A stretch of DNA of 64,000 bases from an uncultured Mycoplasmatota bacterium (GCA_900548725.1 URLV01000002.1:2312-66311); one strand, 5' to 3'. Positions 38,222 through 59,740 are shown, counted from the first letter of the stretch. A program made the numbers and translations. The notes: a model not told the origin generated them from the letters alone.

Positions 38222-40483
38222 TTATTCATCTTGGAAGAAATCATCAAAATATTGATCATCTGTAATATTTGCATTACTATTAGTATTATTTACAATAGTT
38301 TTATCTTCCAATTTATTTTTATCTTCTATTTTATCATTAGAATTTTCCATAAGTAAATCATTAAATGTTTTTGAAACATCTTTATTAGCATCATTGGCAT
38401 TTGCATCTAATATTTCAATATCATCAGACTTATCATTTTTCTGATTCATACTTTCATCCAAGTCAAATTTAAATTCTTCAAGAACTTTATCCATATCTTT
38501 CTTTTCGATTTCTGGAACTTCTTCTTTTTTACCTGCATTTTCTTTTTCAAGTCTTTCTTCTTCTTCAAGTTCTGCAATCTTAGCATCAATTTTTTTCAAA
38601 AGTTCATCAACATCTACTTCTCCACCACCATCAAATGGATTTGGAGGAAGACTATTATTTGAACTAACGGAATTTTGAAATGGATTAAATTTTTCTCCAC
38701 CAAATGGATTAGCACCACCAGGTAATCCAAAACCACCACCAAATGGACTTTGGTTATTCATTCCATCCATAACTTTATTTTTTCTTCTTTTATCTACAAA
38801 ATCTTTTAAATCAAATATTCCAATTTCACCTTTTGCACGTTCAGGAAATTCTGCTAAAGGAAATTTTTCACCCCAGTCAATTTCAAAGCTAGGTTTTAAT
38901 TTAGTTTTAAATGGATTTAATCTTGAACGCATAATAATTGCTTCAAACAATTTCATTTTTTGTAAATCACTAACTGTTACAAGAGGAGTTGAAGCAGTTT
39001 TTTCTTTATCTTTACTCTTCCTTTCCCCGCATAATTTACTAATTTCTTCAAGAGCAGCAAGCTCAGTCGTTAATAAGTAAATTAAATTACCACAGTTACT
39101 ACGTATAGTCTCTGCATCTTCTTTACCATAAACATCATTTAATTGCGCAAAATTCTGAATTATAAACGTAAATCTAATTTGTCTACTACGTGCAGCAGTT
39201 ACCATTGTTGTAACATCTTTTAAAGGAGGCATATTTGCAAACTCATCTAATATAAAATTTGTTCTAACAGGTAATTTGCCACCACATTCTTGTGCTACAT
39301 CAATAAGTGTTTCATAACATTGTTTAATGAATATTGTAGCTAATGCATGATATGTGGTTTTTTCATCATGAATTACCATAAATACAGCAGTAGGTTTCTT
39401 ACCTATATCTCTCATATTGAAATCACTTCTTGATAACATTTCAGACAATTGTTCACGAGAAGCAAATAATCTTATTTTTTGTCTAAATACAGATAAAATA
39501 CCCCCCTTTGTTTCCGTAGGAGAATTTATTGTGTTACTAGCAAATACATATGGTGTACTTGATTCACCTTTCATATTAAAATATTCTTTAATATAATTAC
39601 TAGGCGGACATTTATCTTCCCCAACAGTAGTTACATAATTTATTGAATTTAAATTAATTTCATCTTCTTTTGCATCTTCAAATAAACCTAAAGCAACACC
39701 AGAAAAATAATCAGCTGCACTATTTTCCCAAAACGGATCTTGTGCTTTTTTATCTTTTAAAATATTTAGTGCAACATCATCAACTAATTCTGTAGCTTTA
39801 TCAGTATTACCAGCTTTATATAACTGATATGGAAGTGTTAATGGATTCCAACAATTACCATGTTGTGGTTCACGGAAGTTAAGGACAATAATATCATATC
39901 CTCTATCTCTTAACATATTTGAATGCTCTTTATATATTTCACCTTTAGGATCAGTAATAATCATACTTTCTTTAGCTTTAGCTAAACTATAAACTAATGG
40001 ATCTACAACACTTTTAGTTTTACCACTACCAGTAGCACCAATAACTAATGTATGATTTTCACTATTATCAACCCACATATCTTTACCATTATTTATTAAT
40101 ACTGCACCAGCTGCTTTACAATCCTTTTCACTAATAGGAACTCTAACTACTTTTGGAGCATTTTTTATTTCTTTTTCTTTAGACCATCTAGCATAACCTT
40201 TTTCATCTTTTTCACCAATATTTAATCCAAAGCCTTTACCCTTTTCTCTATCAAATATATAACTTGATACACTCGCAAAAATAGCAATTAAAATAATAAA
40301 AAACAATAATAATGTACCAAATATATATTTAGGCCCAAAACCTAAAAATGGATTAACTCCTAAAAACTCACCAGTATTAATTATACTAACTGCATTACTA
40401 ACCGCAATACTAGACATAAATAATAAAAATATACAAAATACCACAAATATTATTAAATCCTTAGAACTTACATTAAATTTCAT
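38222..40483 (-). CDS. type IV coupling protein, VirD4/TraG family, with long low-complexity C-terminal tail
   Basis: Two N-terminal TM segments, Walker A VIGATGSGKTKS, Walker B FILDEFANMPPL. The start is probably ATG 40483 (GAAGGGA RBS). The C-terminal ~200 aa are Gly/Asn/Asp/Glu-rich. Confidence 0.85.
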   Translation of the reverse strand: MKFNVSSKDLIIFVVFCIFLLFMSSIAVSNAVSIINTGEFLGVNPFLGFGPKYIFGTLLLFFIILIAIFASVSSYIFDREKGKGFGLNIGEKDEKGYARWSKEKEIKNAPKVVRVPISEKDCKAAGAVLINNGKDMWVDNSENHTLVIGATGSGKTKSVVDPLVYSLAKAKESMIITDPKGEIYKEHSNMLRDRGYDIIVLNFREPQHGNCWNPLTLPYQLYKAGNTDKATELVDDVALNILKDKKAQDPFWENSAADYFSGVALGLFEDAKEDEINLNSINYVTTVGEDKCPPSNYIKEYFNMKGESSTPYVFASNTINSPTETKGGILSVFRQKIRLFASREQLSEMLSRSDFNMRDIGKKPTAVFMVIHDEKTTYHALATIFIKQCYETLIDVAQECGGKLPVRTNFILDEFANMPPLKDVTTMVTAARSRQIRFTFIIQNFAQLNDVYGKEDAETIRSNCGNLIYLLTTELAALEEISKLCGERKSKDKEKTASTPLVTVSDLQKMKLFEAIIMRSRLNPFKTKLKPSFEIDWGEKFPLAEFPERAKGEIGIFDLKDFVDKRRKNKVMDGMNNQSPFGGGFGLPGGANPFGGEKFNPFQNSVSSNNSLPPNPFDGGGEVDVDELLKKIDAKIAELEEEERLEKENAGKKEEVPEIEKKDMDKVLEEFKFDLDESMNQKNDKSDDIEILDANANDANKDVSKTFNDLLMENSNDKIEDKNKLEDKTIVNNTNSNANITDDQYFDDFFQDE

Positions 40484-40538
40484 TCTTAACATCCCTTCAA
40501 TACAATTATTATAAAACAAATAGTATATTTTTTCTATA

Positions 40539-41195
40539 CTATTTATTAGATTTTTTTACCTTATTATAAATTACCACAAAAGAAAATAATATTGTTATAA
40601 CAATTAAATAAATTATAATAACAAAAAATTTAGAAACATTACTTTGATTATTAATATTATTTTTATTAATTTTTAAAGATATTTTAATAGGCTTACTATT
40701 GTAATTTGTTCTATCAATATTCCATATATATGTATTACCATCTTTATTATCATAATTGCCACTCAACTTATAATCGGTTTTAACTGTAATATTAATATTC
40801 GATAAATAATTATAGTACTCAAAACACTTAAAATTATCCGAAGTATTTATATTTAAATAACCACTATTAGTATATACATCAACATTCTCATAACATTCTT
40901 TTAATAAAATTGATTGACCATAATTATTAAAATTGTATTTATTATAATAATTTATACCATATACATTATTATTATCTATATTTTCAATCAATAAATTATC
41001 TTTATTATTAATACTTTCTATTGCACCATATAAATTAGCATTAAAATCACTAATTAATTTATCATAATCTTCTTCATTTTTATTTATTAAAATACTACTT
41101 TTTTCTTCTATACCATCATCATTTATAATGATATCATAATTAGCAGAACAAGCCGTACATAATATTACTATAAAGATCAACATTATTTTTTTCAT
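40539..41195 (-). CDS. putative lipoprotein with C-terminal TM anchor
   Basis: MKKIMLIFIVILCTAC lipobox-like signal and a C-terminal hydrophobic segment FFVIIIYLIVITILFSFVVIY. Confidence 0.55.
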   Translation of the reverse strand: MKKIMLIFIVILCTACSANYDIIINDDGIEEKSSILINKNEEDYDKLISDFNANLYGAIESINNKDNLLIENIDNNNVYGINYYNKYNFNNYGQSILLKECYENVDVYTNSGYLNINTSDNFKCFEYYNYLSNINITVKTDYKLSGNYDNKDGNTYIWNIDRTNYNSKPIKISLKINKNNINNQSNVSKFFVIIIYLIVITILFSFVVIYNKVKKSNK

Positions 41196-59500: not shown

Positions 59501-59703
59501 TTACAAATTTCTGCATTTCCATTTTCTTTTACACAATCCTTTTCAATATTCTCAATATAAAGTTTAGAACCACAAACCAATATATTTGAATCAGCAGACG
59601 CATCATCAGTAGCATATCTTACTTCACCAGCATATACGCTCAAGCCAAACACAAAAAAACAACATACAAATATTAAAATTCTAATAATATTATTTTTCTT
59701 CAT
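56551..59703 (-). CDS. large surface adhesin-like protein: four Cys-framed repeats, Flg_new-like segment, four cadherin-like beta-sandwich repeats, C-terminal TM anchor
   Basis: Signal peptide MKKNNIIRILIFVCCFFVFGLSVYA. Repeats of the type CG..(6-7)..C..(7-9)..C...R/K..I. with GWVYRNKIT (SH3b-like flavour). Cadherin-like repeats lie at about 56667-57807. No LPXTG. Confidence 0.65.
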   Translation of the reverse strand: MKKNNIIRILIFVCCFFVFGLSVYAGEVRYATDDASADSNILVCGSKLYIENIEKDCVKENGNAEICKYAKVNDVNQTGWVYRNKITANYDTMVCKNEKVSKIINGTRYLQNKNINEDLKNKGYYCGIGLEIAYCTANNDGSEEWCHVKDSGVRIQSSALAESQSAADNFCGNKTTTTTTTNSGKYSVLFYEYGGYGLECNNGTSYHSDGVCQFIVDSGGKAKFPILPSDNKLLKYDTGLLMGWTKDFSNGEPVCEGGDDETKYRTVEKSSETVLIKEDTKYYACYKEMIGGWRYLQEGAEVSIPEGANKIECGTKFWVDYCINEDGMQYCYGILEGKTRKLYRNKITMEQSAANVTCAGEQKNKYMYVGTSGSDYACGEALYVTTCSEDTCVYNQILKHNGEKVDVSNKAINKKYIFDTTDKAKESCDSSSNDDSKTCKISKSTKNKGEDTYSLCYDKNDNEEINKKNIAKYYQCNQGYTFDKSSVYAITDEKCVGNKCSKKYNVNCKMNDSKPTLEVTPGVIQSNSSEGVISVKALSKAGKITKYYVSEEYLDPTSSSSGWQKVNGDSFTITSTPGIKYIWVMDSKGNISNGVSGTVLDNINTNTTAEKIELYDANGNIQSLASTLSYEESIKSNKYLLISNDLMNDSKVAVNTFNPFNMEYKLEIDSPTVSVYVTLTSSDSNYVTGYEPRTVNLKYGVNTILIKIQNKEGKIRTYTILVTRTDDRTSDNTLSELSVSEGSLNFNSNVTDYKVEIQKNTSVVNVKSNISSDKANYVEGYEPGDVKIEGDTTVKLIKVISQTGSTRTYVITFVKKGTDIIKDSTLQLSDLVIPGVNVPFESDVSNYSFSVDYSMESIDLKLNLNDPNSRVIVSYKRKNDSKYQIGSPTGMGLDVGENFVEIKVINSNDDVAYYRLTIIRKEFGLNISNDSTLKDMKVLGYDIKFSPDKKDYTVKIKQEKSLVITAVPANNRAEVFIRGNDELTGFSTVRVKVVAENGTFETYSIDIKKDAFNKSVEIASIIAGSVIILISSCIIIVKKNIRKNKEYLEE

Positions 59704-59740
59704 ACTATTTACCATCACTTTCATATTTTTATCTAATTTA

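Follow-up and report, generated by a model that had tools for sequence, protein, structure and literature searches.

A 64,000-nucleotide stretch of an uncultured Mycoplasmatota bacterium (GCA_900548725.1 URLV01000002.1:2312-66311; hereafter the window, in positions of which all coordinates are given) was analysed. Its source is a 96.7-kb scaffold assembled from a human-gut metagenome. The window carries, on the minus strand (38222-59724), 19 closely packed or overlapping genes that encode a type IV secretion system (T4SS) of the monoderm kind (MPF-FATA/FA type; MPF, mating-pair formation): VirB4, VirD4, VirB6- and VirB3-like proteins encoded beside virB4, VirB8-like proteins and a VirB1-like hydrolase. 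From the comparisons below, we regard it as an even call that this cluster is a vertically inherited, domesticated and functional monoderm T4SS, derived from an Erysipelotrichales/Mycoplasma-type integrative and conjugative element (ICE) module of the MPF-FATA kind, fixed in a lineage of low-GC gut Bacilli and playing a Patescibacteria-like role in a partner-dependent life. Its most likely use would be contact-dependent exchange with other bacterial cells, in support of such a lifestyle. This reading is built on the parts list of the cluster, its conservation, the pattern of selection on it and the lack of mobility genes in both the cluster and the examined flanks. An earlier note on the window had already taken the cluster for a chromosomally fixed mating-pair-formation machine and not an ICE remnant, and this view held: intact clusters across species, housekeeping flanks, co-divergence with rmuC and purifying selection all speak for it.

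The distribution of the cluster was assessed with one genome per species, and the counts given here are of carriers. A member of the clade is encoded in at least 543 species-representative genomes. The best 80 of these encode a full-length VirB4 (74-97% identical), and all 80 are uncultured gut metagenome-assembled genomes (MAGs) labelled "Bacilli/Tenericutes/Mollicutes/Erysipelotrichaceae", including CAG:582, CAG:524 and CAG:605, which probably belong to RF39 (GTDB), as the window may too. Among the best 80, the open reading frames (ORFs) and the core order VirB6, VirB3, VirB4 N-terminal domain, VirB4, hydrolase ... VirD4 are intact: the part was in place in 73/73 relatives for VirB3, 76/76 for the VirB4 N-domain, 61/65 for VirB6 and 41/46 for VirD4 (within 10 kb). 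The other five of the 46 relatives with enough downstream DNA (L040, L055, L059, L060 and L068) have no VirD4 within 10 kb of virB4, which is the typical arrangement in Patescibacteria. One 438-kb scaffold (L091; GCA_900198705.1 FZPS01000096.1), where virB4 and the M23 hydrolase gene lie amid scrambled genes (ezrA, rpsJ, GT2, PrgI-like), appears to be a MAG scaffold that was concatenated or misjoined, and was left out of the synteny comparison.

The cluster had been described as fixed between the S10 operon and rnj. This is correct for the sub-clade of the window (VirB4 at least 90% identical), to which the site is specific, but most relatives carry the cluster at dnaI ... dedA-rmuC. A relative with a 72%-identical VirB4 has it at mraZ-rsmH ... 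gerA/pcrA, and recG, murC and M16 peptidases were further housekeeping neighbours. The cluster is fixed in the lineage, not at one site. In the 72% relative, gerA, gerAC and a spore permease gene adjoin the T4SS (L090:14976-18596), and some members of the lineage, at least, seem able to form spores.

Pairwise identity of VirB4 was closely correlated with that of the adjacent rmuC (Pearson r = 0.95, 66 pairs), VirB4 being the better conserved of the two (78.5% versus 67.8% for rmuC). Measured against rmuC, this co-divergence, combined with a flat GC content, is unlike the patchy, phylogeny-incongruent pattern of ICEs. Ratios of non-synonymous to synonymous substitution rates (dN/dS) were computed against five or six close species and are rough values, because dS is near saturation (0.5-1.2): 0.03-0.06 for VirB4, 0.09-0.12 for the VirB4 N-domain, 0.11-0.17 for VirD4 and about 0.2 for both VirB3 and a MinD-fold pseudo-ATPase (51431-52465), with 0.12 for rpsJ and 0.14-0.19 for GT2 as comparators. 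The wall- and surface-exposed parts (40539-45693, 48373-50580 and 53412-59724) gave 0.4-1.0. VirB4 changes at the slow pace of a ribosomal protein, and purifying selection on the cluster is strong.

The translocation core had been listed in the earlier note as a VirD4-type coupling protein, VirB4, a polytopic 735-aa VirB6-like protein, a two-transmembrane ORF upstream of VirB4 and two N-anchored ORFs in the VirB8 slot, and profile and model searches agreed with each assignment. The VirD4-type coupling protein (38222-40519; start at 40483 according to the gene caller) has two N-terminal transmembrane (TM) segments, a Walker A motif (GATGSGKT) and a Walker B motif (ILDEF), and matches PF02534 (4.8e-58), the NCBIfam family conju_CD1115 (1e-89, above cutoff) and NF045973 (301 bits, exceeding the cutoff of 250). 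At its extreme C-terminus (38222-38270), after a variable acidic low-complexity linker, stands an acidic-aromatic tail, ITDDQYFDDFFQDE (consensus [IV]TDDQ[YF][YF]DDFF), which is kept across the lineage and looks like a docking tail for a partner.

VirB4 is split across two genes, since a 185-aa and a 600-aa ORF match successive parts of the Mycoplasma-ICE model NF045975 (Mbov_0397). The larger (45710-47512), corresponding to the C-terminal two-thirds of the ATPase, matches PF19044 and model positions 295-891 of 894 (8e-105; 351 bits, below the cutoff of 590), as well as NF045971 (3e-50), and contains Walker A (GTSGSGKS) and Walker B (MVDEAH) motifs. The smaller (47505-48062) is the detached, TrsD/TraC-like N-terminal domain (NF045975 3.3e-17, model positions 97-281; PF26593, TraC-like) and overlaps virB4 by 8 nt, an overlap through which the two genes are predicted to be translationally coupled. 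The split was found in 76/76 relatives, and overlaps of the coupling type (8, 4 or 1 nt) in 78/80. Walker A was intact in all 80 VirB4 and all 52 full-length VirD4 orthologues; the Walker B pattern was present in 52/52 VirD4 and 48/80 VirB4 (the other 32 VirB4 were judged by pattern alone).

Directly upstream of the VirB4 N-domain gene lies the gene for the two-TM protein (48049-48360, 103 aa), which is VirB3-like by the TcpE/PrgI matches of its orthologues: 17/26 match TcpE (best 5.5e-5) and 8/26 match PrgI. The extended VirB6-like channel protein (48373-50580, 735 aa) is polytopic, with 7-8 hydrophobic segments, a pilin-like N-terminus (T4SS_pilin match at residues 59-114, 2.3e-4) and a long hydrophilic C-terminal region; it matches NF045848 (MMCAP2_0566 conjugal transfer family, 1.6e-13), and an orthologue matches TrbL_4. 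All these VirB6-like and VirB3-like profile matches fall below the curated cutoffs. The two VirB8-like proteins of about 170 aa are paralogues (hhalign 95%). The second of them (43129-43644) has an N-terminal TM segment and an NTF2-like fold (AlphaFold2 model, predicted local distance difference test 82.5); its top Foldseek matches in the PDB are all NTF2-like and include TcpC of pCW3 (3ub1), with a weak E value of 0.02 (probability 0.99). The first (42642-43166; gene caller start 43136) has an N-terminal TM segment and, by extension from its paralogue, probably the same NTF2-like domain.

The M23 plus lysozyme-like and M15 wall hydrolases of the earlier list were also recovered. Immediately downstream of virB4 is the gene for a secreted M23 endopeptidase and lysozyme-like hydrolase (43654-45693; PF01551, 5.5e-26), the lysozyme domain of which was seen via its orthologues (Phage_lysozyme / Phage_lysozyme2). 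A VirB1-type wall hydrolase (41204-42625) consists of a cytoplasmic N-region of about 170 aa, a TM segment (170-188) and an extracellular M15_4 peptidase (PF13539, 2.4e-19), which is swapped in relatives for a C39/C70 type or, judged by eye, an apparently NlpC/P60-like type. The large surface proteins noted at the head of the operon are Cadherin-like adhesins: the operon's first gene encodes a protein of 1057 aa (56551-59724; PF12733, 4.2e-21), and a second protein of 370 aa (54682-55794; PF12733, 1.1e-13) follows, both with a C-terminal TM anchor. Between them is encoded a surface protein (55889-56608) in which a signal peptide is followed by a Thr/Ser-rich stalk and, again, a C-terminal TM anchor. 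A surface lipoprotein-like protein (40539-41195) carries a Cys lipobox in its signal peptide, is anchored by a C-terminal TM segment, matches no family and has a dN/dS of 0.7-0.9.

The VirB2-like complement amounts to three pilin paralogues and the pilin-like N-terminus of the VirB6-like protein, which by alignment have a two-helix module in common. The paralogues are a 117-aa protein (51015-51368; PF18895, 1.4e-3; Mbov_0395 pilin-like, 5e-3), a 136-aa protein (50591-51001; gene caller start 50941), identified by alignment and a weak T4SS_pilin match, and the C-terminus of a secreted 431-aa protein (53412-54707; TM pair at 290-350), which aligns with both pilins. The T4SS_pilin family (PF18895) was matched by 18/36 members of the pilin-module family, with a best value of 3.2e-6.

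When the 19 ORFs were scanned against Pfam and NCBIfam, no relaxase, recombinase, Rep or Par family was matched at E ≤ 0.01-0.05, and family scans detected no DDE transposase in the cluster, as the earlier note had reported from the sequence alone for relaxase, recombinase or transposase, Rep and partition genes. No integrase or relaxase was seen in the flanks (Pfam-annotated ±10 kb in three relatives, or in four clade contexts in the case of relaxases; recurrent flank families read by eye elsewhere). The sole ORFs without a signal peptide or TM segment are those of VirB4, its N-domain and the MinD-fold protein, so the operon has no room for a cryptic relaxase. Two ORFs that had been proposed as possible hidden relaxases or recombinases proved to be something else: 51431-52465 encodes a MinD/ParA-fold pseudo-ATPase (model and Foldseek), and 40539-41195 is the protein with a lipobox signal peptide and a C-terminal TM anchor. 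The cluster thus differs from a self-transmissible ICE or conjugative plasmid in having no linked relaxase, no integrase, DDE transposase or replication-partition module, and no att repeats, and from a Mycoplasma ICE (MICE) in its VirB4 score below the family cutoff and in that the CDS22 DDE transposase was not found.

The physical setting was as described before: 19 co-oriented minus-strand ORFs, with every listed element in place, between core genes and without a compositional break or flanking repeats. On one side lie rpsJ/rplC/rplD and a convergent GT2 gene, with the remaining S10/spc/alpha operons beyond them; on the other lies the RNase J gene (rnj). The same junctions recur in independent assemblies. 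GC content is about 25% across the window, with no step at the cluster. A search for direct repeats around the cluster gave only chance-level AT-rich matches and no att-like repeats. No tRNA or other RNA gene that could serve as an integration target is near the cluster, the sole tRNA gene of the window being a distant tRNA-Ala (2613-2689).

The closest mobile relatives of the cluster are remote. The best plasmid match to VirB4 is 29% identical (Bacillus thuringiensis plasmids), and in a representative library of 1.8 billion proteins the identity within the VirB4 family drops in steps, from 72% through 46/43% to 34% or less; named relatives at 31-34% are Thomasclavelia ramosa, Solobacterium, Erysipelotrichaceae and a Mycoplasmatota plasmid. 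Among the few names retrieved for such distant relatives, none carried a Patescibacteria label. The T. ramosa ICE encodes a VirB6-like protein, a small TM protein, a VirB4 N-domain (225 aa), VirB4 (606 aa) and an M15_4-containing hydrolase, and thus has a split VirB4 as well. Its VirB4 is only about 33% identical to that of the window, however, and it has a serine recombinase, a Toprim primase, SSB, sortase-dependent SpaA pili and a group II intron, none of which is present in the window cluster. The shared gene order and split VirB4, together with an identity of 34% or less, therefore point to a long-domesticated derivative of the Erysipelotrichales ICE type.

Mycoplasma ICEs (ICEA/ICEB; CDS5 = VirD4, CDS17 = VirB4) give the best NCBIfam matches for VirB4, the VirB6-like and the pilin-like proteins, and resemble the cluster in having few recognisable conjugation genes and a surface lipoprotein in the module (PMC6030558). 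In contrast to them, the window cluster scores below the family cutoffs (VirB4 351 versus 590 bits), has no DDE transposase (CDS22), and is neither multi-copy nor randomly inserted. Unlike Mycoplasma, the host of the window is walled, and wall hydrolases and VirB8-like proteins are therefore present. The earlier note had matched the layout to pCF10 prg/pcf. The generic monoderm parts list (adhesins, VirB1, B3, B4, B6, B8, D4) is indeed common to both, but the nearest homologues are in Erysipelotrichales and Mycoplasma ICEs, and as an overall analogue the Patescibacteria T4SS comes closest; pCF10-type systems are relaxase-linked and, in a 2025 review (PMC12857230), are described as being without VirB2-like pilins. 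The archaeal Ced/Ted systems are likewise chromosomal, relaxase-less and conjugation-derived, with a VirB2-like pilus (PMC12102498 and general background), but the window showed only trivial P-loop matches to CedB (4e-3) and CedD (4e-9), of about 45 residues, and is not a member.

The Patescibacteria T4SS, exemplified by Southlakia epibionticum ML1 (Wang et al., 2023; Quinonero-Coronel et al., 2025, PMC12102498) and compared here by its published description, is the closest known system. The order of pilin array, VirB6, VirB3, TrsD-like N-domain, VirB4 and peptidase/lysozyme is alike (PMC12102498), down to the array of sequence-divergent VirB2-like pilins and the peptidase and lysozyme immediately downstream of virB4, and both systems are chromosomal, lineage-wide, MPF-FATA-derived and without an associated relaxase. 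They differ in that the host of the window belongs to the Bacillota (Bacilli); in that only 148 of 5,713 type IV coupling protein (T4CP) genes of Patescibacteria are near virB4, whereas the window VirD4 is operon-encoded and constrained, with a conserved tail; in that no VirB8-like protein was detected in Southlakia ML1, against two NTF2/VirB8-like proteins here; and in the additional Cadherin-like adhesins and trio of pilin-like, pseudopilin-like and MinD-fold proteins of the window. By this comparison, the cluster appears to be a Patescibacteria-style domesticated T4SS within the Bacillota. The 2025 review (PMC12857230) states that Gram-positive T4SSs are without VirB2-type pilins, with Patescibacteria as the single exception, that the Southlakia T4SS is essential for epibiotic growth by transposon sequencing, and that the Patescibacteria T4SS is unique among monoderms in this requirement and in its potential for pilus formation.

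This architecture, without a relaxase, with pilins and fixed in the chromosome, is now found in a large lineage of Bacilli from human and animal guts. A literature search retrieved no paper on such a T4SS in RF39-type or other gut Bacilli; a survey of Mollicutes ICEs took integrase plus relaxase as its criteria and would miss the window system because both are required. If functional, the system would offer a testable hypothesis for resistance to cultivation (reliance on a partner cell), candidate marker genes for finding that partner, a second, independent lineage for non-conjugative or chromosomal-exchange uses of Gram-positive T4SSs, and an outgroup with which to date and source the Patescibacteria system. 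A bolder version of the preferred reading holds that the abundant, never-cultured, small-genome gut Bacilli of the RF39 type depend on the T4SS for an obligate cell-contact life on other gut bacteria, as Saccharibacteria do, and that the Bacilli and Patescibacteria systems are direct relatives, which would amount to an epibiotic toolkit in the style of the Candidate Phyla Radiation within the Bacillota, maybe the source or sister of the Patescibacteria T4SS. We consider this stronger version rather unlikely.

Under the preferred reading of a domesticated, partner-directed T4SS, for which the direction of transport, the target cell and the substrate are what we infer, the machine would work as follows. 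The operon would be transcribed from its own promoter after rnj; the C-terminally anchored Cadherin-like adhesins and VirB2-like pilins would contact the target cell; the M23/lysozyme and M15 hydrolases would open the wall; the two NTF2/VirB8-like proteins would line the route through the wall; VirB6, VirB3 and the split VirB4 would form and power the membrane translocon; and VirD4 would recruit a cytoplasmic substrate, probably via its acidic-aromatic C-terminal tail, and feed it outward. Several points weigh against this reading. The relaxase search spanned the cluster and ±10-kb flanks, and a relaxase could lie elsewhere in the genome. The auxotrophy and genome reduction of RF39-type Bacilli are themselves only inferred in the literature (PMC12306168), and the near-saturated dS makes for an imprecise measure of selection. 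Moreover, the Southlakia coupling protein is unlinked and non-essential, whereas VirD4 of the window is in the operon and constrained, so that export of DNA or effectors fits at least as well as nutrient uptake.

This constraint on VirD4 keeps very much alive the principal alternative, that of conjugation domesticated for chromosomal DNA exchange (export or import) within the lineage, with a relaxase elsewhere or a relaxase-independent process like Mycoplasma transfer or archaeal Ced, which would offset mutational decay in small genomes; we judge it possible but less probable than the preferred reading. T4CPs are typically receptors for DNA substrates, and the operon-encoded VirD4 with its conserved docking-type C-terminal tail fits such a use. 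So do the closest profile families, which are those of Mycoplasma ICEs (VirB4 Mbov_0397, VirB6-like MMCAP2_0566, pilin-like Mbov_0395), and the pilus module with a T2SSE ATPase that adjoins the T4SS in some relatives, an arrangement resembling the pairing of Ups pili and Ced in archaea. Mycoplasma ICEs drive chromosomal transfer, according to the 2025 review (PMC12857230), and in ICEA homologues of conjugation proteins can be recognised for CDS5 and CDS17 only (PMC6030558). Against DNA exchange, neither the operon nor the ±10 kb around it in the relatives examined contains a relaxase, an oriT-like element or any gene for DNA processing, and the fast-evolving exposed parts would hamper mating between diverging conspecifics. 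Those same hypervariable parts would fit an arms race, as expected if the system secreted protein effectors or toxins into the milieu, competitors or an animal host, independently of a partner (cf. the Streptococcus suis 89K and Xanthomonas-type killing T4SSs). There is Gram-positive precedent for such secretion in the review (PMC12857230), and a constrained VirD4 is present, but neither candidate effectors nor immunity pairs or toxin domains were found in or beside the operon in the relatives examined, and we hold this explanation to be improbable.

A still smaller chance is given to an organelle for adhesion only, in which the channel has been reduced to assembling pili and adhesins and nothing is translocated. 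One third of the operon consists of adhesins, three to four VirB2-like pilins and pilin-like proteins; yet pilus biogenesis needs no coupling protein, and VirD4, which is linked to the operon in 41/46 relatives, has kept its Walker motifs intact and evolves under purifying selection. Least probable of all, and already disfavoured, is that the cluster is an ordinary ICE remnant, or a complete ICE with an undetectably divergent relaxase or integrase, lying between core genes by chance. The module does derive from ICE-type conjugation genes, and its different sites in different sub-clades indicate that it moved or was rearranged as a block at least once. Against this stand the intact ORFs in about 80 species, the ribosomal-protein-like constraint on the motors, the co-divergence with rmuC, the three ORFs lacking membrane or signal segments (none of which can be a relaxase), the absence of repeats or a GC break and the identical junctions in independent assemblies. 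The ordinary-remnant explanation was rejected on the gene order in the best 80 of at least 543 genomes, the housekeeping flanks at several sites, the correlation with rmuC (r = 0.95) and the slow evolution of VirB4, with the nearest mobile relatives at 29-34% identity.

The trio of additional proteins has features of a pilus module. The cytoplasmic two-domain protein (51431-52465) is modelled with a flavodoxin/receiver-like N-domain and a MinD/ParA (SIMIBI) fold (AlphaFold2 confidence 71), resembling TadZ/CpaE-like pseudo-ATPases; its Walker A motif is conserved in the alignment but degenerate (NLTEHAGATT), and Foldseek matched the model to HypB, ParF, MinD, FlhG and BcsQ (1e-4 to 1e-3). The pseudopilin-like protein (52477-52956) begins with MRE[AS]IGG followed by a hydrophobic helix in the alignment, and a Pfam scan of its family gave no match. 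The small pilin-like protein (52974-53264), with a true start at MKEASGELSMT, a hydrophobic helix and a Cys-rich C-terminal domain, belongs to a family of which 3/23 members weakly match archaeal Pilin_N (E 0.009). Both pilin-like N-termini follow the pattern M[KR]E[AS]xG plus hydrophobic helix and lack the Flp motif (G/XXXXEY). Searching PDB sequences with profiles of the unassigned families yielded nothing useful.

In six more distant relatives (L037, L043, L050, L062, L071 and L079), genes for an RcpC-like protein, a T2SSE ATPase (1.4e-28) and two membrane proteins are located directly upstream of the trio (for example L079:61-3261), forming a contiguous pilus and T4SS super-operon; this RcpC/T2SSE module is absent from the window, in which no T2SSE ATPase or classic pilin was detected. 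The comparison suggests a pilus module of Tad or archaeal type, three genes of which are all that the window has kept; the Tad-like reading is tentative because family-level support is weak. Elsewhere in the window, 35 kb from the trio, genes for a prepilin peptidase (A24_N_bact, 2.4e-31) and for a platform protein of the T2SSF family (1e-47) come immediately after the ribosomal alpha operon (15511-18015, minus strand). They are preceded by genes for four unassigned secreted proteins (18341-22868, minus strand) with N- or C-terminal modules common among them.

Scans for consensus promoters and terminators within the operon performed no better than on shuffled sequence. The 72-bp spacer after rnj (59725-59796, minus strand) contains a terminator-like AT-rich hairpin with a T-run, then a promoter-like TTGCAA-16 nt-TATAAT; this near-consensus promoter, read from the sequence, may be the operon's own. 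Just outside the start of the window, more than 38 kb from the T4SS, a Xer-type tyrosine recombinase, the only recombinase seen, is encoded (L088:20670-21536). At the same end of the window, a Y-family DNA polymerase and YolD pair (969-2689, plus strand) adjoins the tRNA-Ala gene.

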